From: Eledone cirrhosa
Taxonomy: Eukaryota
Assembly (NCBI GenBank): GCA_964016885.1
Contig: OZ024761.1
Coordinates: 14,880,001-14,944,000, forward strand
DNA length: 64,000 bases
Reading direction: 5' to 3'
Made by a program: the position numbers and the translations under genes. Positions 9,225 to 57,036 of this stretch are shown here, one piece after another. The first letter of the stretch is position 1, and each line of letters begins with the position of its first letter. The notes under the pieces are model-generated. The model was not told where the DNA came from, searched no databases, and saw only the letters and a list, made by a program, of their open reading frames with translations.

Positions 9225-10415
<1,191 letters not shown>

Positions 10416-11562
10416 TAAGCTTTGATTAATTTTTTTTATTTTTTTTTTATTTCTTAAAAGTTTTATAATCTTTCACCTTTTTTATGATTCCACCTTTTAC
10501 GTGATTGGAAAAAATCGCTGAAAACAAAAAAAGATCTTCGTCTGCCCTCTTTATCATTGTGATCGCTTTTACATCCATTCCTCCATGTTGGCATGGGTTC
10601 GACAGGGGTTTTTAAAGCAATGCTTTATAGCCAAATGTCCTTCCAGACACCAATCCTTTTAGTGTCCTCTTGCGACATGCAAAACTACATTGTACCTATT
10701 CAGGATATAGTCAAACAATGTTGGTACTGGAATACTGGTATGATGGGATATAGTCAAACATTGTTGATATTGAAATGACATTTGTTTGGCAGGTTTTCTA
10801 CAGCAGATTACCCTTCCTATCACCAACCACTTTATAGTGTATATATGTAGATCACCACATATATATATATATATATGTATATAGCTTTTTTCTGATGAAG
10901 GAATAGCGTCTGAATTTTTAAGACCCCTTTCCTGCTATTTCAAGCATTAAACTAATATATTCCTTCCATATAATCCTGTACTGATCGTGTTGTTATTTCT
11001 GTTTACCTTTCACATATGCATATATATATATATAAATATATATATTATAAAGAATTAATATATCTACCGACATATGTATACAGATGCATACCTATGCTAG
11101 CAGATATATATGTTTTGTCTTAGTAACTTTGTGGTTCTATGCAGGGGAATGCAGAACAATTATATGAAAGATGTAAATAAGAAAGTTATGAAAATTGACT
11201 TACTTACTAAAATTTCACTCCAGCTATGCTCTGTCTTAATAGCACCCCCACTCCAAGCTGGTTAACCTCAGTGTCATGTGATTGATTCCTTTGAATTTGC
11301 CACTTGACCAAGAAGGCAGTGAATTTTTCAATGGCTTGGAATCTAGCCCCGCTCGCTTTTTTCCATCCACTGAATTATTTTTATATAAGTTCCCAGTGTC
11401 CCCGCATTGCCTGGAAACTTAGCTGAGAATAGACTCCCTGATGACGTAAGGCTTCTCTATAGTTATTACGTAACTATATTTATCCCCTTACAGAAACTAA
11501 TTAGTTGGAGTGAAATTTTAGTAAGTAAGTCAATTTTCATAACTTTCTTATTTACGTCTTTC

Positions 11563-11613
<51 letters not shown>

Positions 11614-11691
11614 AAATGATTCAGTAGATTCGTGGCTTGCTGAGAAAGGTACTTTAATCAGCACGCTATGCTATGGCAGAGTGTATATAAA

Positions 11692-11862
11692 AAGAACAAA
11701 ATGGGGTTTGACATTGAGGTTTTTATTGATTATGGACAGTTACAAACGTTTCACAGCAGGCCGGTCTATAACTTTAACATAGATCCTGAGCCACCCATCT
11801 GTGAAACGGTCGTGCTGTACCTAATCAATAAAGGCCTTAATGTGAAACCTCATTTTATTCTT
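11692..11862. mobile_element. Diverged fold-back with hammerhead 3' halves
   Basis: Imperfect ~65-bp arms. ctgtGAAACggtcGTg on + and ctgtGAAACgtttGTA on -. Flanked by (TA)n. Confidence 0.55.
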
Positions 11863-11874
11863 GGGATATAGATA

Positions 11875-24492: not shown

Positions 24493-24847
24493 ACATATAT
24501 GTAACTAAATATTCAGTTAACTAAGTGAGAGTTATTAAAGTCAACAAGACTTGTTTAAAATGAGATTGATGATGTTGTTTTGTTGATTCGCTGTTCGAAA
24601 TTTCAGGTTCAGTGGCAGACAGTTTTAAGCATAGATCAAGTTCTAAAAATATTAGACGGCTATTCCAGTCGATATAGAAACAGTTTTGGAGTCATGAAAG
24701 TTTATTTTTATCAGCTTTTATCATGAGTTTCAAGTAGCCATGATAAGGCTGGTAAAATAAACTTTCAAAATATCAAAATTGTTTTACACTGCAAACTCTT
24801 GAAATTTTGGACTTGGAACACACACATATATATCTAGTATTACCTAC

Positions 24848-26077: not shown

Positions 26078-26122
<45 letters not shown>

Positions 26123-26151
26123 ATTAACAAATGGAAACTATATTTATAAAA

Positions 26152-26231
26152 CCATATTTATTTCATTATACATATTTCAAGGACACCAAGTTAAATTATG
26201 GTGTGCTTTCATCAGATAAAATATAATATAG
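26152..26231 (-). ncRNA. Type I hammerhead ribozyme motif (mirror copy of 26355-26434)
   Basis: Exact reverse complement inside the 160-bp inverted repeat. Confidence 0.8.
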
Positions 26232-26354
26232 AGCAGTTTTATAAATAAATATTGACATGCCCTTAAAGAATGCGACCATTTCTGTTGGAAGCTCCCGGAT
26301 AGTGTAATGGTCGCATTCTTTAAGGGCATGTCAATATTTATTTATAAAACTGCT

Positions 26355-26434
26355 CTATATTATATTTTATCTGATGAAAGCACACCATAATTTAACTTGG
26401 TGTCCTTGAAATATGTATAATGAAATAAATATGG
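26355..26434 (+). ncRNA. Type I hammerhead ribozyme motif (complete)
   Basis: CTGATGA 26371-26377. Stem II aagcacacca/tggtgtcctt. GAAA 26408-26411. Self-complementary stem III ATATGTAT. AUA site at 26417-26419. Stem I ctatatt-a-tattttat / atgaaata-aatatgg (15 bp, one bulge). Confidence 0.8.
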
Positions 26435-26661
26435 TTTTATAAATATAGTTTCCATTTGTTAATATATCGTATTTTTACTCCAATAATTTGTTGAGTGCTT
26501 TATATCAGTTATAATAATGGTTTCTTATATAGGCACAAGGCCAGCAATTACCCAGTATATTACTGGTACTTTCTTTTATCAACCCCGTGCTTGTTGTATC
26601 CCAACAATTTAAATAGAACTTCTACATATATATATATATATATATATATGTGTGTATATAT

Positions 26662-26880: not shown

Positions 26881-27074
26881 AATATATACACACACAGTCC
26901 TATACAAGTGAGACGACCAATCTTGCCTCAAGTGGGACAATTCCCGTCTATCCCATGCTAGCATAGAAGATAGACATTAAACGATGATGATGATGAGGAT
27001 GATGGTGATGATACACACACACACACACACATACATATGCACACCTACACATTCATACAGACACACACTCATGT

Positions 27075-30000
27075 GTTAATGGTTGTGGTGGTAGTAGTGT
27101 TGGTGTTAGTTGTTGTACTGGTGGTATTGGTGGCTGTAGTAGTTGTGGTAATAGTAGTGTTGGTGTTAGTGGTTGTGCTGGCTGTAGCAGTTGTGGTGGT
27201 AGTAGTGTTGGTGTTAGTAGTTGTACTGGTGGTATTGGTGGCTGTAGTAGTTGTGGTAATAGTAGTGTTGGTGTTAGTTGTTGTACTGGTGGTATTGGTG
27301 GCTGTAGTAGTTGTGGTAATAGTAGTGTTGGTGTTAGTGGTTGTGCTGGTGGTATTGGTGGCTGTAGTAGTTGTGGTAATAGTAGTGTTGGTGTTAGTGG
27401 TTGTGCTGGTGGTATTGGTGGCTGTAGTAGTTGTGGTAATAGTAGTGTTGGTGGTATTGGTGGCTGTAGTAGTTGTGGTAATAGTAGTGTTGGTGTTAGT
27501 GGTTGTGCTGGTGGTATTGGTGGCTGTAGTAGTTGTGGTAATAGTAGTGTTGGTGGTATTGGTGGCTGTAGTAGTTGTGGTAATAGTAGTGTTGGTGTTA
27601 GTGGTTGTGCTGGTGGTATTGGTGGCTGTAGTAGTTGTGGTAATAGTAGTGTTGGTGTTAGTGGTTGTGTTGGTGGTATTGGTGGCTGTAGTAGTTGTGG
27701 TAATAGTAGTGTTGGTGTTAGTTGTTGTACTGGTGGTATTGGTGGCTGTAGTAGTTGTGGTAATAGTAGTGTTGGTGTTAGTGGTTGTGCTGGTGGTATT
27801 GGTGGCTGTAGTAGTTGTGGTAATAGTAGTGTTGGTGTTAGTGGTTGTGCTGGTGGTATTGGTGGCTGTAGTAGTTGTGGTAATAGTAGTGTTGGTGGTA
27901 TTGGTGGCTGTAGTAGTTGTGGTAATAGTAGTGTTGGTGTTAGTGGTTGTGCTGGTGGTATTGGTGGCTGTAGTAGTTGTGGTAATAGTAGTGTTGGTGT
28001 TAGTGGTTGTGTTGGTGGTATTGGTGGCTGTAGTAGTTGTGGTAATAGTAGTGTTGGTGTTAGTTGTTGTACTGGTGGTATTGGTGGCTGTAGTAGTTGT
28101 GGTAATAGTAGTGTTGGTGTTAGTGGTTGTGCTGGTGGTATTGGTGGCTGTAGTAGTTGTGGTAATAGTAGTGTTGGTGTTAGTGGTTGTGCTGGTGGTA
28201 TTGGTGGCTGTAGTAGTTGTGGTAATAGTAGTGTTGGTGTTAGTGGTTGTGCTGGTGGTATTGGTGGCTGTAGTAGTTGTGGTAATAGTAGTGTTGGTGT
28301 TAGTGGTTGTGCTGGTGGTATTGGTGGCTGTAGTAGTTGTGGTAATAGTAGTGTTGGTGTTAGTGGTTGTGCTGGTGGTATTGGTGGCTGTAGTAGTTGT
28401 GGTAATAGTAGTGTTGGTGTTAGTGGTTGTGCTGGTGGTATTGGTGGCTGTAGTAGTTGTGGTAATAGTAGTGTTGGTGGTATTGGTGGCTGTAGTAGTT
28501 GTGGTAATAGTAGTGTTGGTGTTAGTGGTTGTGCTGGTGGTATTGGTGGCTGTAGTAGTTGTGGTAATAGTAGTGTTGGTGGTATTGGTGGCTGTAGTAG
28601 TTGTGGTAATAGTAGTGTTGGTGTTAGTGGTTGTGCTGGTGGTATTGGTGGCTGTAGTAGTTGTGGTGGTATTGGTGGCTGTAGTAGTTGTGGTAATAGT
28701 AGTGTTGGTGTTAGTGGTTGTGCTGGTGGTATTGGTGGCTGTAGTAGTTGTGGTAATAGTAGTGTTGGTGTTAGTGGTTGTGCTGGTGGTATTGGTGGCT
28801 GTAGTAGTTGTGGTAATAGTAGTGTTGGTGTTAGTGGTTGTGCTGGTGGTATTGGTGGCTGTAGTAGTTGTGGTAATAGTAGTGTTGGTGTTAGTGGTTG
28901 TGCTGGTGGTATTGGTGGCTGTAGTAGTTGTGGTAATAGTAGTGTTGGTGGTATTGGTGGCTGTAGTAGTTGTGGTAATAGTAGTGTTGGTGGTATTGGT
29001 GGCTGTAGTAGTTGTGGTAATAGTAGTGTTGGTGTTATTGGTGGCTGTAGTAGTTGTGGTAATAGTAGTGTTGGTGGTATTGGTGGCTGTAGTAGTTGTG
29101 GTAATAGTAGTGTTGGTGGTATTGGTGGCTGTAGTAGTTGTGGTAATAGTAGTGTTGGTGTTAGTGGTTGTGCTGGTGGTATTGGTGGCTGTAGTAGTTG
29201 TGGTAATAGTAGTGTTGGTGGTATTGGTGGCTGTAGTAGTTGTGGTAATAGTAGTGTTGGTGTTAGTGGTTGTGCTGGTGGTATTGGTGGCTGTAGTAGT
29301 TGTGGTAATAGTAGTGTTGGTGTTATTGGTGGCTGTAGTAGTTGTGGTAATAGTAGTGTTGGTGTTAGTGGTTGTGCTGGTGGTATTGGTGGCTGTAGTA
29401 GTTGTGGTAATAGTAGTGTTGGTGTTATTGGTGGCTGTAGTAGTTGTGGTAATAGTAGTGTTGGTGGTATTGGTGGCTGTAGTAGTTGTGGTAATAGTAG
29501 TGTTGGTGGTATTGGTGGCTGTAGTAGTTGTGGTAATAGTAGTGTTGGTGTTATTGGTGGCTGTAGTAGTTGTGGTAATAGTAGTGTTGGTGGTATTGGT
29601 GGCTGTAGTAGTTGTGGTAATAGTAGTGTTGGTGGTATTGGTGGCTGTAGTAGTTGTGGTAATAGTAGTGTTGGTGTTAGTGGTTGTGCTGGTGGTATTG
29701 GTGGCTGTAGTAGTTGTGGTAATAGTAGTGTTGGTGTTATTGGTGGCTGTAGTAGTTGTGGTAATAGTAGTGTTGGTGGTATTGGTGGCTGTAGTAGTTG
29801 TGGTAATAGTAGTGTTGGTGGTATTGGTGGCTGTAGTAGTTGTGGTAATAGTAGTGTTGGTGGTATTGGTGGCTGTAGTAGTTGTGGTAATAGTAGTGTT
29901 GGTGGTATTGGTGGCTGTAGTAGTTGTGGTAATAGTAGTGTTGGTGGTATTGGTGGCTGTAGTAGTTGTGGTAATAGTAGTGTTGGTGTTAGTGGTTGTG

Positions 30001-31580
30001 TTGGTGGTATTGGTGGCTGTAGTAGTTGTGGTAATAGTAGTGTTGGTGTTAGTGGTTGTGTTGGTGTTATTGGTGGCTGTAGTAGTTGTGGTAATAGTAG
30101 TGTTGGTGGTATTGGTGGCTGTAGTAGTTGTGGTAATAGTAGTGTTGGTGGTATTGGTGGCTGTAGTAGTTGTGGTAATAGTAGTGTTGGTGGTATTGGT
30201 GGCTGTAGTAGTTGTGGTAATAGTAGTGTTGGTGTTAGTGGTTGTGTTGGTGGTATTGGTGGCTGTAGTAGTTGTGGTAATAGTAGTGTTGGTGTTAGTG
30301 GTTGTGTTGGTGTTATTGGTGGCTGTAGTAGTTGTGGTAATAGTAGTGTTGGTGGTATTGGTGGCTGTAGTAGTTGTGGTAATAGTAGTGTTGGTGGTAT
30401 TGGTGGCTGTAGTAGTTGTGGTAATAGTAGTGTTGGTGTTATTGGTGGCTGTAGTAGTTGTGGTAATAGTAGTGTTGGTGGTATTGGTGGCTGTAGTAGT
30501 TGTGGTAATAGTAGTGTTGGTGTTATTGGTGGCTGTAGTAGTTGTGGTAATAGTAGTGTTGGTGGTATTGGTGGCTGTAGTAGTTGTGGTAATAGTAGTG
30601 TTGGTGTTAGTGGTTGTGTTGGTGGTATTGGTGGCTGTAGTAGTTGTGGTAATAGTAGTGTTGGTGTTAGTGGTTGTGTTGGTGGTATTGGTGGCTGTAG
30701 TAGTTGTGGTAATAGTAGTGTTGGTGTTAGTGGTTGTGTTGGTGGTATTGGTGGCTGTAGTAGTTGTGGTAATAGTAGTGTTGGTGGTATTGGTGGCTGT
30801 AGTAGTTGTGGTAATAGTAGTGTTGGTGTTAGTGGTTGTGTTGGTGGTATTGGTGGCTGTAGTAGTTGTGGTAATAGTAGTGTTGGTGTTAGTGGTTGTG
30901 TTGGTGGTATTAGTGGCTGTAGTAGTTGTGGTAATAGTAGTGTTGGTGGTATTGGTGGCTGTAGTAGTTGTGGTAATAGTAGTGTTGGTGGTATTGGTGG
31001 CTGTAGTAGTTGTGGTAATAGTAGTGTTGGTGGTATTGGTGGCTGTAGTAGTTGTGGTAATAGTAGTGTTGGTGGTATTGGTGGCTGTAGTAGTTGTGGT
31101 AATAGTAGTGTTGGTGTTAGTGGTTGTGTTGGTGGTATTGGTGGCTGTAGTAGTTGTGGTAATAGTAGTGTTGGTGTTAGTGGTTGTGTTGGTGGTATTG
31201 GTGGCTGTAGTAGTTGTGGTAATAGTAGTGTTGGTGTTAGTGGTTGTGTTGGTGGTATTGGTGGCTGTAGTAGTTGTGGTAATAGTAGTGTTGGTGGTAT
31301 TGGTGGCTGTAGTAGTTGTGGTAATAGTAGTGTTGGTGTTAGTGGTTGTGCTGGTGGTATTGGTGGCTGTAGTAGTTGTGGTAATAGTAGTGTTGGTGTT
31401 AGTGGTTGTGTTGGTGGTATTAGTAGTAGTAGTAATGGTGGTAGTAGTAGAAGTAATGGTGATAGTGGTTGTGATAGTAGAAATAATAGAATAGTGGATG
31501 CAATGGTTATAGTAGTAGTAGTAGTATTGGTAGTAGTGGTGGTGTTAGTTGTAGTATTGGTGGTAGTAATTATGGTGGTG
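27075..31580. repeat. 4.5-kb trinucleotide-derived minisatellite (60-bp and 42-bp units)
   Basis: gtggtattggtggctgtagtagttgtggtaatagtagtgttg with an optional gtgttagtggttgtgctg. Confidence 0.95.
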
Positions 31581-31679
31581 TTGCTATTTTCAGGTTAAAA
31601 ATACAGGTTGTGTGATAGTGTCTTCCTTTCTCATACTTTCAGATAGGAACAATGCTTGTCACTAACTGAACAGGTTTGA

Positions 31680-31789: not shown

Positions 31790-32720
31790 TAACCCCAGGG
31801 CAGCTCTGATCCAGCTGGTATTCCAGTTCTGACCATCCTATCTAGGTTCAGACCTGATCCAGCTGGTATTCCAGTTCTGACCATCCTGTCTAGTGTCAGC
31901 TCTGGTCCCGTTGGTATTCCAGTTCTGACCATCCTATCTAGGTTCAGACCTGATCCAGCTGGTATTCCAGTTCTGACCATCCTGTCTAGTGTCAGCTCTG
32001 GTCCCGTTGGTATTCCAGTTCTGACCATCCTATCTAGGTTCAGACCTGATCCAGCTGGTATTCCAGTTCTGACCATCCTGTCTAGTGTCAGCTCTGGTCC
32101 CGTTGGTATTCCAGTTCTGACCATCCTATCTAGGTTCAGACCTGATCCAGCTGGTATTCCAGTTCTGACCATCCTGTCTAGGTTCAGACCTGATCCAGCT
32201 GGTATTCCAGTTCTGACCATCCTGTCTAGGTTCAGACCTGATCCAGCTGGTATTCCAGTTCTGACCATCCTGTCTAGGTTCAGACCTGATCCAGCTGGTA
32301 TTCCAGTTCTGACCATCCTGTCTAGGTTCAGACCTGATCCAGCTGGTATTCCAGTTCTGACCATCCTATCTAGGTTCAGACCTGATCCAGCTGGTATTCC
32401 AGTTCTGACCATCCTGTCTAGTGTCAGCTCTGGTCCCGTTGGTATTCCAGTTCTGACCATCCTATCTAGGTTCAGACCTGATCCAGCTGGTATTCCAGTT
32501 CTGACCATCCTGTCTAGGTTCAGACCTGATCCAGCTGGTATTCCAGTTCTGACCATCCTGTCTAGGTTCAGACCTGATCCAGCTGGTATTCCAGTTCTGA
32601 CCATCCTGTCTAGGTTCAGACCTGATCCAGCTGGTATTCCAGTTCTGACCATCCTATCTAGGTTCAGACCTGATCCAGCTGGTATTCCAGTTCTGACCAT
32701 CCTGCCAGAGATCAGCTCTG
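31790..32720. repeat. 48-bp minisatellite, ~19 copies, two variants
   Basis: ccagctggtattccagttctgaccatcctatctaggttcagacctgat. Confidence 0.95.
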
Positions 32721-32724
32721 TTAT

Positions 32725-33445
32725 TTATTGAGGCACCAAAACTAGGGAGGTTGTTGTGTCCTTCACCTAACTGAAGATTTTTCTCAACCATTTGTTCAGC
32801 GTAGTTTCTATGGCCTGGAAGTCCATCTTATAAACCACTTTACAGAGTGTACAGGGTGTTATTTATGGAGTCACCAAAACTAGGGAGGTCGGCATGCCCT
32901 TAGCACAACTGAAGATTTTTCTCGACCATTTGTTCAGTGTAGTTTCTATGGCCTGGAAGCCCTTCTTATAAACCACTTTACAGAGTGTACAGGGTGTTAT
33001 TTATGGAGTCACCAAAACTAGGGAGGTCGGCATGCCCTTAGCACAACTGAAGATTTTTCTCAACCATTTGTTCAGCGTAGTTTCTATGGCCTGGAAGTCC
33101 ATCTTATAAACCACTTTACAGAGTGTACAGGGTGTTATTTATGGAGTCACCAAAACTAGGGAGGTCGGCATGCCCTTAGCACAACTGAAGATTTTTCTCG
33201 ACCATTTGTTCAGTGTAGTTTCTATGGCCTGGAAGCCCTTCTTATAAACCACTTTACAGAGTGTACAGGGTGTTATTTATGGAGTCACCAAAACTAGGGA
33301 GGTTGGCATGCCCTTAGCACAACTGAAGATTTTTCTCAACCATTTGTTTGGCGTGGTTTCTATGGCCTGGAAGTCCATCTTATAAACCACTTTACAGAGT
33401 GTACAGGGTGTTATTTATGGTGTCACGAAAACTAGGGAGGTTGTG
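32725..33445. repeat. 138-bp tandem repeat, ~5 copies with alternating variants
   Basis: caccaaaactagggagg recurs at 32872, 33010, 33148 and 33286. Confidence 0.9.
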
Positions 33446-39120: not shown

Positions 39121-39310
39121 ATAGGAACGAGTAGGACCCCGACGGCTGAGCTCAAGCCGTTTTGACGGCTAATTCTGGACAGAATTAGCCGTCGAAACGG
39201 CTTGAGCTCAGCCGTCGGGGTCCTACTCGTTCCTATTACCCACTCTACTACCCTAAGTATTGAGTACTTTGGTGTGTTATGGTCCACCTGGTTCCTTACC
39301 ACATTTCCTC

Positions 39311-45560: not shown

Positions 45561-45617
<57 letters not shown>

Positions 45618-45620
<3 letters not shown>

Positions 45621-46509
45621 GGTGCGGACGATATCTGTTCGCAAGATTACTGTCTAGGAAAAAAGAACACAGTAGTTTTATTTTTTAAGATTTATTTATC
45701 AAACTTGGGTCAGTTTGTCTTCATGACTTGTTCTTTCGATCTCACTTGATTAACCCGCCATTGGCTTTGATGATGGCCTCAAGGCAGCCTCGGAACCGGC
45801 TACAGGCCTTCGTCACTGTCCCCCGACTTAGGCCCCTGAAGGCACTTGTGACCCTGGCCTTCAGATCGTCTTTCGTATTGCAGCTAGATCTGTTGGTGTC
45901 TCGTTCCACTGCGCCCCACACAAAGAAGTCGAGAGGGTTGCAGTCAGGCGAGCTGGGAGGCTAGATGTCAGGTGAAGTGTGGTCGACGAAGTTCTCTGAC
46001 AGCCAGGCTTGAGTCTTTCGGCTGGTATGGCAGGGTGCTGAATCTTGCTGCCACATGTACGGCCTACCTGCAGCTACCTGGTTGATCCAGGGCTTTACTA
46101 CCTCGCTCAGAACGTGGATGTAGCCATCGGTGTTCAGCTTGAGGCCCCCAGGGAAGAAGTGAGGTGGCATGACGTCACGTTGACTGCTGACGACACCTAA
46201 GACCAATGTTGTCGCTGGAAACTTTGTCTGCATGACTCTGGGCATGTCTTTGGATGAGACAGCGAGCCACCTGTTGTTCTGGGAGTTGATCTTCTGGTCT
46301 TATTTGTCTTCCCGGCGCGGATTCCAAGAAGAACTCTGTGTCTCTCCACAAATTTGGAGGTTCAAAATTATTCATACTCAATTATTCTGAAAATAAATAA
46401 TGGAAATATAGTCACTGTTTTTATGAAGACAAGAGTGACAACGGAAGTAAAAAAAAATTTGCATAAAATTAGCAGTTGAAAATTGGGAACAAATATCGTC
46501 CGCACCCTG
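45618..46509 (-). mobile_element. Internally deleted Tc1/mariner transposon, DD37D (maT) type
   Basis: TIRs cagggtgcggacgatat.tgttc.caa, TA flanks. Minus-strand transposase relic WQQDSAPCH..*PPSSPDCNPLDFFVW with 37 residues between the two Asp. Confidence 0.88.
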
Positions 46510-46608
46510 TATATATATATATATATATATATACAGGGTGCGGACGATATTTGTTCCCAATTTTCAACTGCTAATTTTATGCAAATTTTTTTTTACTTCC
46601 GTTGTCAC

Positions 46609-46648
<40 letters not shown>

Positions 46649-49354: not shown

Positions 49355-49400
<46 letters not shown>

Positions 49401-49405
<5 letters not shown>

Positions 49406-49500
49406 AGAACGCAACTATCGTCCCAGGATGATATTTGTTTTTGAAATGCGCATAATAAAATATATGGAACTTTTTTAACCATCTTTTAATTTCTTCTTAT
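49401..49500 (+). ncRNA. Hammerhead motif 5'-truncated at the first core base, plus downstream tail
   Basis: (TA)n directly joined to TGATGA, stem II gaacgcaactatcgtcc/ggatgatatttgttttt, GAAA 49443, ATGCGCAT palindrome, AUA site. Same family as 55487-55629. Confidence 0.65.
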
Positions 49501-49511
49501 ATATATATATA

Positions 49512-50309
49512 CTAGCAGATGTACCCGACGTTGCTCGGGAAATGAATGACAGCCTGTTTGTCTGTATAAAGAGAGCCAGAGGTTGAGCAAAGAATTCAAA
49601 TGTAATTGTAAAAAAAAGTTTTAACAAAATGGGTGTACAGTGACATGATTGAGTGAAATAAACGGCAACATAAAAACAATTCATGGGGTAGCTTGAGTTA
49701 ATTGACGTGAATGATTGCAGGTCCGGCCTTGCTGTAGTAGGTATGAGTGAGGGGATAAAGATGGAATAGACGCACCAATGTCCTTCAGTAGACTAAACCC
49801 TATGCGTAAGATGGCACTGCCACTACCACGTTGACCATCCACTGGACATAGCAATATCATTCCTTGAAGCAACTATTCCCCCTCTACGCCTGAATACACG
49901 ATGAGAATGAACAAAAAGGTTAAGTTAATCAAAACGAAGATACTGTTGCCGAGAATGCTGCTGCACGATTTTCAGAGGCCATAGCGAGTCAAGCTGCTAG
50001 GTTAGGGGGCCATAGCGAGTCAAACTGCTAGGTACACAATTAGCCAATGAGAGGTCGCCTCAATAGCACGTGCAAAATCGGCCTAGTACTTCAAAAGTTA
50101 AAAGGAGCCTAGTATTTGTACACAGACAGATACACACACAAAATCGATTTTTCAGCCCCAAAACCTGCTCTGGCATATAAGCAACATGTGTGCCAAATTT
50201 GGTTGAAATCAGCCTAGTACTTCAAAAGTTAAAAGGAGCCTAGTATTTGTACACAGACAGACAGACAGACAGACACACACACAGACCGACTTGCTTTTAT
50301 ATATATAGA
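49512..50309 (-). mobile_element. Non-autonomous Helitron
   Basis: Minus strand starts A|TC and ends with hairpin cccgagcaacgtcggg followed by CTAG|T. Internal (CAGA)n and a tandem duplication. Confidence 0.8.
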
Positions 50310-54919: not shown

Positions 54920-55486
54920 CTGCCTAATTTATATATTATATTATATTATATTATATTATATATATATATAAGCCAAACCCACAGAGTTTGTGGTAGATCC
55001 TCTACTTCTACTAATATATATGTATAAGTTTATCCCAGGTTCGATCGGTTTTTCACTTTTTCACGCTTGCATGGGTTGGATGGCCCCTTCTCAGCATAAC
55101 ATCTCTCGCCTCTAGGTCTCAGTGATTTGAGGTCAGCTCTCATAACCTCTGCCCAAGTTTTTCTTGGTCTACCTCTACCACAGCTTCCTTTCACTGGCAT
55201 TGGACACTTCTTCACTCAAAGATCATTGTCCATGCACATCACATGTCCAAAACCAAAGCAGTCTTCTCTCCTGCACACACATATATAAATAGATGAATTA
55301 TTTTTATATGACTAGATCTATTTCAAACAAATGAAATAAATATGAGGAGAGTGGGCATTATGGCATTATTCATGACTCAAGATCATATATATATATATAT
55401 GTAGGAGGTGAGTTTTATTGTAGTACAATAAAGCAATGCAGATATCGGATAAGAAGCACTCTACAGTTTGTAGGACTGGAGTATAC

Positions 55487-55626
55487 ATAATATATAAGAA
55501 CAAAAGATGGTTAAAGGAGTTCCATGTATTTTATTATGCGCATTTCAAAAACAAATATCATTTGTTTTTGAAATGCGCATAATAAAATACATGGAACTCC
55601 TTTAACCATCTTTTGTTCTTATATAT

Positions 55627-55629
<3 letters not shown>
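55487..55629. mobile_element. Fold-back with hammerhead 3' half (GAAA-TGCGC-ATA)
   Basis: Perfect 70-bp arms with a 3-nt loop. Homologous to 49430-49490. Confidence 0.7.
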
Positions 55630-55657
<28 letters not shown>

Positions 55658-55850: not shown

Positions 55851-56049
55851 AGGAAAGTGTGGTAAGATACCAGGTGGACCATAATGCACCAGAGTACTCG
55901 ATACTTAGGGTAGTAGAGTGGGTAATAGGAAAAGAGTCAGGACCCCGACGGATGAGCTCCGGCCGTTTCGATAGCTGCTAGATCTGAGTTTAGATCTAGC
56001 TGTCGAAACGGCCGGAGCTCAGCCGTCGGGGTCCTGACTCTTTCCCTAT
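55851..56049 (-). mobile_element. Second copy of the 39121 family, opposite orientation
   Basis: Hairpin 55925-56049. The tail acccactctactaccctaagtat.gagtact.tggtg..ttatggtccacctgg is shared with 39238-39295. Confidence 0.7.
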
Positions 56050-56182
56050 ATATATAATTGGGTGTTGGATGCTTAAAGTGTCTGTATGTGGTAGGCCGTA
56101 TGAGCACTTGATGCTCTCATAGAGCAGAGTATGATATCACAGAAAAAAAGAGAATCAGTGTTGCGACGAATGGAATTCATTG

Positions 56183-56278
56183 GACATATTACAATCGTTT
56201 CCCTGGCGACCAGCTCGAGGCACGAACAATTTGATGATCGATCCTGACTCTGAAAATCACAAGGTCCTCAGATACGTC
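56183..56278 (-). ncRNA. Type I hammerhead ribozyme motif (mirror copy of 56312-56406)
   Basis: Reverse complement reads gacgtat CTGAGGA ccttgtg...tcgccagg GAAA cgatt GTA atatgtc. The core is intact. Confidence 0.78.
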
Positions 56279-56311
56279 TTGATTTTAGGAAATTCTGCTT
56301 CATAGAATCAA

Positions 56312-56406
56312 GACGTATCTGAGGACCTTGCGATTTTCAGATCAGGTTCGATCATCAAATCGATCGTGCCTCGAGCTGGTTGCCAGGGAAACGATTGTAA
56401 TATGTC
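56312..56406 (+). ncRNA. Type I hammerhead ribozyme motif with long stem II
   Basis: Stem I gacgtat/atatgtc. CTGAGGA 56319-56325. Stem II closed by ccttgcgat/gttgccagg. GAAA 56388-56391. Self-complementary stem III ACGATTGT. GUA site at 56397-56399. Confidence 0.8.
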
Positions 56407-57036
56407 CAATAAATTCCATTCGTCGCAACACTGATTCTCTTTTTTTCTGTGATATATATATATATATATATGAGATCGAGATGGTGTAGGTGTCACGAGA
56501 AAAAAAACACACAGTCCACGCTGTAATGTGGCTGTGTAGGTAGCATGGTAAAAAGTTCCCATTTCCACACTGTAAATGGGGTTAGTGTTAGGAAGAGCAT
56601 CCATCCGTATACAACCTGCCAGATAGTCCTATATGAGCGAGACACGGTCACCTGACCAACCTTGCCTCAAGTGGGACAACTCCCATCTAACCCATGCTAG
56701 CGTGGAAGATGGACGTTAAACGAAGAAGATGATGATGATGATGATCAGAAGATAGAATGAAAAATAAAGGAATAGAAAGATAGAGAAGAAGAATAAATGG
56801 AAAAGAAAAAAAACATTGGAGGTGGGGAGGGAGAAAAAGCACCTGTGGTGTGTGTGTGAGAGTGTGTACGCACGTGCAGTGATGGTGGTTGTAGTACAAT
56901 AACTGCTAGTTTGGTGTAATTTAAAACATCAGCCTATTTAACAACAATGAAAGGGAAGGTCAAAGGTTGTGTATGTAGAAGGGTGAGGGACAGTAAAGAA
57001 GGTGCTGGGGGTGTGGGGCAATATTAACAGAACCTA

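Follow-up and report, generated by a model that had tools for sequence, protein, structure and literature searches.

The inverted repeat at positions 56134-56455 of the window, i.e., of the whole stretch of 64,000 nucleotides of Eledone cirrhosa DNA analysed here, is very probably the insertion unit of an endonuclease-bearing (EN+) Penelope-like element (PLE). We consider it likely that a Penelope-like enzyme, probably one of the Hydra clade, generated it as a single old head-to-head insertion between (TA)n tracts, and that this insertion was primed from both ends. The family is new, the pattern is known; a long stem II of the hammerhead motif and a tail hairpin are modest additions to it. Most likely the locus is an ordinary decayed insertion stub of the described pattern, and it bears no sign of a host function.

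A self-BLAST of the window aligned 56134-56455 with itself as an inverted repeat of 92% identity over 323 columns. Two arms of about 150 nt are arranged head to head, and each contains a complete type I hammerhead motif which points outward (Table 1). When the arms are aligned (56134-56284 against 56306-56455) 7 of 151 columns differ. At the junction 56281-56290 pair imperfectly with 56300-56309, and it is the short-ended arm which carries the spacer. The outer ends are dissimilar: the right arm stops flush in (AT)10, the left arm runs 77 nt further to (TA)5. Both ends of the unit (56057-56455) lie within (TA)n, and no target-site duplication is readable there. At the locus there is no reverse transcriptase (RT) gene and no open reading frame for an RT or a GIY-YIG endonuclease.

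The initial annotation, which was made from the letters, had proposed a fold-back with twin hammerheads at 56134..56455, unrelated in sequence to an element of like architecture near 26 kb. The inverted repeat with a motif in each arm is borne out, and so is the unrelatedness, the best match to the 26-kb arm having an E-value of 0.14. The proposed boundaries are correct for the inverted repeat and too narrow for the full extent, because the 77-nt tail at 56057-56133 most likely belongs to the insertion unit, to judge by the layout of the sequence.

Table 1. Features of the head-to-head insertion and of the tracts which border it (positions in the window)
Feature	Positions	Strand	Remarks
(TA)5 tract	56047..56056	no strand	long end of the unit; common to the short end of the neighbouring fold-back 55925-56049
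One-sided 77-nt tail, extends the left arm	56057..56133	-	assigned from the like layout in the window's other fold-backs
Bulged tail hairpin	56104..56130	-	ACTC-[6-bp inner stem, 3-nt loop]-TC-AAGT-GC; 1 mismatch to RCTC...GAGY-RC
Left arm, long-ended	56134..56284	-	ends ~19 nt before the family's common 5' boundary
Left type I hammerhead motif	56183..56278	-	predicted cut after A at 56190
Central spacer	56285..56305	+	family sequence from ~56287, oriented as the right arm
Right arm, short-ended	56306..56455	+	flush with (TA)n
Right type I hammerhead motif	56312..56406	+	predicted cut after 56399
Right-motif stem I	56312-56318/56400-56406	+	
Right-motif core	56319-56325	+	
Right-motif stem II	56326-56387	+	
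Right-motif GAAA	56388-56391	+	
Right-motif palindromic stem III	56391-56398	+	
(AT)10 tract	56452..56471	no strand	short end of the unit

Read from the centre outward, each arm consists of stem I (GACGTAT/ATATGTC), CTGAGGA, a stem II of 62-63 nt, GAAA, a self-complementary ACGATTGT and GTA. The hallmarks of a type I hammerhead, i.e., CUGANGA, GAAA and NUH arranged in type I order and closure by stem I, are present in the motifs of both arms. The predicted GUA cleavage sites have A17 at 56399 in the right arm (+) and at 56190 in the left arm (-; motif 56278-56183). A hammerhead descriptor found 4 matches in the whole window, all of them within this unit or the fold-back at 26121-26465; the average over 100 dinucleotide-shuffled windows was 0.07, and shuffles of one arm gave a match in 2 of 5000. 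Stem II is predicted to be more stable than its shuffles, with z-scores of -3.1 (right) and -2.1 (left).

The motif is not canonical. The conserved G10.1-C11.1 pair is absent; at position 10.1-11.1 the window has C-G, and most relatives have C.A, a mismatch at the base of stem II. A variant which is found in the family, at 56385, breaks one pair of this stem. The short stem II expected of a PLE hammerhead is not found, as the 62-63 nt demonstrate. Rfam returned no hammerhead match in the window at the gathering score, and at E up to 10 the 23 matches comprised 22 miRNA-precursor models placed on hairpins and one lncRNA model, again no hammerhead. Rfam probably misses the hammerhead because stem II is 62 nt long, and consequently such motifs are probably under-counted in invertebrate genomes.

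A working twin ribozyme is not supported by the predicted folds. There is one sense motif per strand of the palindrome, and in read-through RNA of either strand the predicted probability of stem I is about 0. In a single full arm it is 0.02-0.03, dropping from 0.9 once the RNA extends beyond about 56430. The ribozymes, located on opposite strands, are thus predicted to be buried and inactive in any transcript which reads through the palindrome. Two minimal motifs are predicted to pair into a double hammerhead through an intermolecular stem III of 8 bp (P 0.89-0.97); when the arms are complete, neither stem I nor this stem III exceeds a predicted probability of 0.03. Most likely, the hammerhead is a ribozyme of the dimer type and derives from the source element. 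PLE hammerheads which cleave as dimers reportedly were the subject of a paper in 2017.

The differences between the arms are located mainly within stem II (6 of 7), and the core, stem I and stem III are free of them, as had been stated from the letters. As a sign of selection on two ribozymes this pattern is not supported. By chance, all 33 columns of the core and stems would be free of differences with P 0.18. The excess of differences in stem II has P 0.02, which rises to 0.04-0.07 after up-weighting of CpG sites. Of the six substitutions three are C/T at CpG; compensatory changes are absent. The changes of the left arm weaken its stem II from -23.2 to -19.4 kcal/mol; none of its substitutions is among the family variants listed from read and contig relatives. 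In the right arm the T at 56381 deviates from the family. All this looks like independent decay after insertion, not like selection. ADAR-type editing was considered as the origin of the arm differences and rejected: only one is A/G, the others are C/T at CpG, two transversions and one indel.

It is highly improbable that selection maintains both hammerheads here and that they function jointly, e.g., in divergent transcripts which dimerise via the palindromic stem III. The intact cores and stems I and III of both arms and the co-folding of the minimal motifs would agree with such a pair. Yet with 7 differences intact cores are a matter of chance, the weakened left stem II has no compensatory change, and the full arms are predicted to form hardly any stem I or intermolecular stem III.

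We return to the PLE insertion. The statements on published elements made here and below pertain to parts of the cited texts and supplements. EN+ PLE insertions are marked by a 5'-truncated copy which adjoins in inverted orientation, by a tail on one side only and by a hammerhead (PMC8557442; PMC3846280). The unit possesses the inverted 5'-truncated copy, head to head, and a one-sided 3' tail on the left arm only; further likenesses are the position of the hammerhead near the 3' end, the imperfect palindrome at the junction and the AT-rich target. In contrast to the EN+ PLE unit it is devoid of a coding part and of a readable target-site duplication, and its tail has 77 nt where the printed PLE tail length is 30-40 bp (PMC8557442). 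The initial annotation had taken the independent recurrence of the architecture as a hint of a general mechanism or element class. This is correct, with the proviso that the class has already been described in the two papers.

Among the PLEs the Hydra clade has (TA)n as its target (PMC8557442). The placement in (TA)n and a hammerhead close to the 3' end are both found here. Further, the unit and the Hydra clade have in common the type I hammerhead, a short self-complementary stem III, often a GUA site and, by eye, the bulged hairpin. The two differ in stem II, which has 62 nt here but does not exceed about 30 nt in any of the 26 Hydra rows of File S2. The hammerhead and the 3' end of Hydra-1_Obim differ from those of the unit, and a comparison made without protein features yielded no sequence match to any published Hydra family. 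Four 12-nt motifs had 0 matches in the PMC8557442 supplement, in which FASTA line breaks can hide matches. In the portion of the octopus repeat annotation PMC13282606 considered here hammerheads and palindromes are unmentioned.

Dual hammerheads on opposite strands, 100-700 bp apart, were published in 2014, and PLE hammerheads were reported to have a palindromic stem III, implying dimer action (PMC4209133). The present motifs share with these metazoan hammerheads the type I order, the palindromic stem III and the opposite-strand pairing, whereas the long stem II with multiple bulges, the missing G10.1-C11.1 pair and a stem I of 7 bp set them apart. An inverted copy and a second, opposite-strand hammerhead are also listed for Penelope-13_HM (PMC8557442). 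The metazoan non-LTR retrozymes also are short non-coding repeats with type I hammerheads and are kin to PLE ends (PMC7229834; bioRxiv 10.64898/2026.07.22.740005). Retrozymes, however, are head-to-tail tandems, at least two hammerhead units in a row; at the locus there is one motif per strand, and each arm, with its single motif, is shorter than a retrozyme unit.

The left-arm extension opens with a bulged hairpin, i.e., RCTC, an inner stem-loop, two bases, GAGY and RC. A descriptor of this hairpin matches 6 times in the window, each time just outside one end of a palindrome, and 0.37 times on average in 30 shuffles; since it was composed after these tails had been seen, the count is not an independent test, and the copy of the unit under study has one mismatch. 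The hairpin adjoins 6 of the 8 self-palindromic repeats, which were identified among 18 near inverted matches; 46432-46611 and 24678-24784 are without it. The inner-stem sequences differ across five families. From the end of the arm to the next (TA)n the distance is 77, 81 and 77 nt in three fold-backs. The six new Hydra consensi in File S7 of PMC8557442 were inspected by eye. In Hydra-2_Amil and Hydra-2_Ajap a like hairpin follows the hammerhead, Hydra-1_Ajap has it two times close to its start, and Hydra-1_Crog shows it in part; in Hydra-1_Amil and Hydra-1_Obim it was not recognised. Judged by sequence and position, the hairpin may be a candidate start signal for reverse transcription. A literature search, the coverage of which excluded most subscription papers, found neither a hairpin signal nor double-end priming for Penelope elements.

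Palindromes are a known class of artefact. The probability that an assembly or library fold-back produced this one is next to nil. The 7 arm differences, three of them at CpG, the unlike flanks and the one-sided tail argue against it, as does the layout, which is common to five other families in the window. In this respect the initial annotation was right.

The other fold-backs of the window are briefly described. At 26121-26465 a young fold-back has 160-nt arms which are 100% identical and a hammerhead with CTGATGA and an ATA site; its one-sided right tail (26466-26512) contains the bulged hairpin at 26477-26498 and is interrupted by another repeat near 26513. Shorter fold-backs at 55482-55634, 39121-39236 and 55925-56049 are centred inside the hammerhead stem II and therefore comprise only the half from GAAA to the cut. 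Each of them has a one-sided tail of ~74-81 nt with a hairpin, and those at 39121 and 55925 are of one family. The fold-backs at 55482 and 55925 and the unit under study form a cluster of insertions within 1.1 kb. An older fold-back at 11684-11870, with an arm match of 72%, has a decayed hammerhead whose 3' half is like that of the present unit and a tail hairpin at 11682-11661 (-). A one-armed copy of the 55482 family is situated between two (TA)n tracts at ~49400-49513 and is truncated within the hammerhead core. Different in kind is the perfect 180-bp palindrome at 46432-46611, which is centred on (TA)n and is without hammerhead or tail hairpin; 45594-45644 and an ORF at 45961-46299 (-), which has no Pfam match, go with it. 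We take its arms to end like a Tc1/mariner inverted repeat, with a transposase-like fragment nearby.

The remainder of the window is microsatellite-rich animal DNA. A large exon of a HIPK-type kinase occupies 9225-10418 (+); its product matches HIPK2/3 kinase structures, and it ends at a GT donor near 10415. A search with kinase motifs found no later exon of this gene in the window, so that the rest of it, with the unit studied here, could be a single long intron. A trinucleotide-based minisatellite of 4.5 kb, extremely skewed in GC, extends over 27000-31600, and a separate array of ~48-bp units over 31790-32730.

Next, relatives of the right arm were sought in 4 sequencing runs at 82% likeness. 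They amount to 1475 reads in run X13, a RAD library, where many reads come from few loci, and to 1218 contigs in run X1; X7 and X8 contributed 0 reads, which says nothing either way. Organism A of the reads is possibly a relative and not the species of the window (share of words 0.21). Among the 35 listed variable positions none is within the 27 columns of core and stem I (P 0.0003). For the 16 positions which vary at a level of at least 5% in X1 the value is P 0.03, and it would be P 0.04 were 3 positions beyond the listed ones all in the core. Four of these 16 positions fall in the 8-nt apical loop. A common family variant at 56393 makes stem III a perfect palindrome; in some X13 reads stem III varies. 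Core conservation across copies, on which the hammerhead reading had been made to depend, is thus seen, for among the listed variants the relatives keep the core and stem I. The family was probably under selection for the hammerhead fold at its source.

Both arms carry two letters which are rare in X1, each below 1%, at 56358 (0.6%) and 56387 (0.2%). These shared rare letters fit one template, arm-to-arm conversion or a species difference; perhaps they are mere species differences, since organism A may not be the species of the window. At the base of stem II (56326, 56387) both window arms have C-G where most relatives have the C.A mismatch. Such a change of A to G opposite C would fit RNA editing of the template; a difference between species or subfamilies is as likely.

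The X1 contigs are collinear from 56288-56290 into the right arm, and thus the spacer belongs to the family and is oriented like the right arm. The loose ends before 56286-56288 are mostly mixed and AT-rich, with an agreement of 0.50, 0.52 and 0.57 in three of four sets. The one other set, 126 X13 reads, has an agreement of 0.94 and may represent one locus or a shared upstream sequence. Its 30-letter upstream consensus before 56287 holds a 9-letter word like the one after the second hairpin of Hydra-1_Ajap. The shared word hints, if weakly, at a family organised as a short tandem or circular unit. Two further observations were discarded. In X13, 280 read ends coincide at 56415, where there is a GAATTC variant; in a RAD library such a pile presumably does not mark a biological end. 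Four metagenome loci (L001-L004) obtained by a scan with a 19-nt motif match those 19 letters only and are unrelated.

Joints with the opposite strand were encountered at three places, which differ and are each weakly supported: 56290/56303 (4 X13 reads, 2 starts; near the junction of the window itself), 56294/56348 (1 contig) and 56342/56360 (3 reads, perhaps stem II itself). The first speaks to some degree for a shared unit or for a favoured site of joining. Most relatives are one-armed and start at the spacer with a common 5' boundary. As most relatives lack the mirror arm and the few joints differ, it is likely that the palindrome arises during insertion and is not mobilised whole. Whether fold-backs share their junctions or each acquire their own had been proposed as a comparison; on few reads, it leans towards formation at insertion.

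One could object that the palindrome is a non-autonomous mobile unit, i.e., a twin-hammerhead mini-element or MITE-like fold-back which is copied whole. In its favour is the joint close to that of the window; moreover contig assemblies treat palindromes badly, and such units could be under-counted. Nevertheless, we consider it quite improbable. Most relatives which reach the spacer continue into unrelated letters, the other joints are located elsewhere, and a second copy is absent from the window. The asymmetric ends, too, are not those of a MITE or fold-back element, and both ribozymes would be buried in read-through RNA.

For the double-end primed insertion we propose the following route. 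A GIY-YIG endonuclease would cut both strands within a (TA)n tract, and both 3' ends would prime reverse transcription on one uncleaved RNA, or each on an RNA of its own from a common source. One cDNA would start at the short-end site just before the tail hairpin, the other about 77 nt further 3'. Both would pass through the hammerhead towards the 5' part of the RNA; one would reach the common boundary near 56287, the other would stop about 19 nt earlier. The cDNAs would be joined at the small imperfect palindrome, and afterwards the arms would decay independently. Because both arms copy through the cut site, the template should have been uncleaved or re-ligated. Two primings from a double-strand cut are favoured because, had a single cDNA folded back, the spacer would be found on the arm whose 3' end is longer. 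The position of the spacer on the short-ended arm is incompatible with a single-cDNA fold-back unless trimming occurred.

Biochemical data on a Penelope enzyme point in the same direction. In vitro, Poseidon of Anolis cleaves both strands and extends each of them, initiates at two internal sites which bracket the tail, and uses uncleaved RNA (PMC11167929). By analogy the two start sites and the two-strand extension match double-end priming, the enzyme being Poseidon, not Hydra: it belongs to a different clade, its start signal is an AC-rich stem-loop, and head-to-head products are not described in the part of the report considered.

A PLE of the same kind might also have passed through a hairpin intermediate, generated by self-priming at the central imperfect palindrome, either on antisense RNA or by snap-back of the first cDNA, and followed by unequal trimming by the endonuclease. 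Self-priming on antisense RNA was proposed earlier (PMC3846280), as was endonuclease resolution of the tail (PMC8557442), and the imperfect palindrome at the junction and the rare letters common to both arms would agree with this route. We hold it to be unlikely, because the spacer on the short-ended arm demands extra trimming of exactly that strand and the in vitro start sites (PMC11167929) already explain both ends.

Double-end priming leads to the question of the source. Tentatively, this may be a short non-coding hammerhead RNA, possibly circular or tandem with a unit of ~300 nt, which parasitises a Hydra-clade enzyme. A dimeric RT would read two copies of the bulged hairpin as start signals and copy one RNA onto both ends of the (TA)n cut. 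We grant this proposal somewhat less than an even chance.

How PLEs form tandem and inverted structures is named as an open question in PMC8557442. The locus provides a test case: arm polarity, shared rare alleles and the tail hairpin separate double-end priming from snap-back. If a parasitic hammerhead RNA and a dimeric RT were indeed at work, they would account for the inverted copy, the one-sided tail and the common 5' boundary together.
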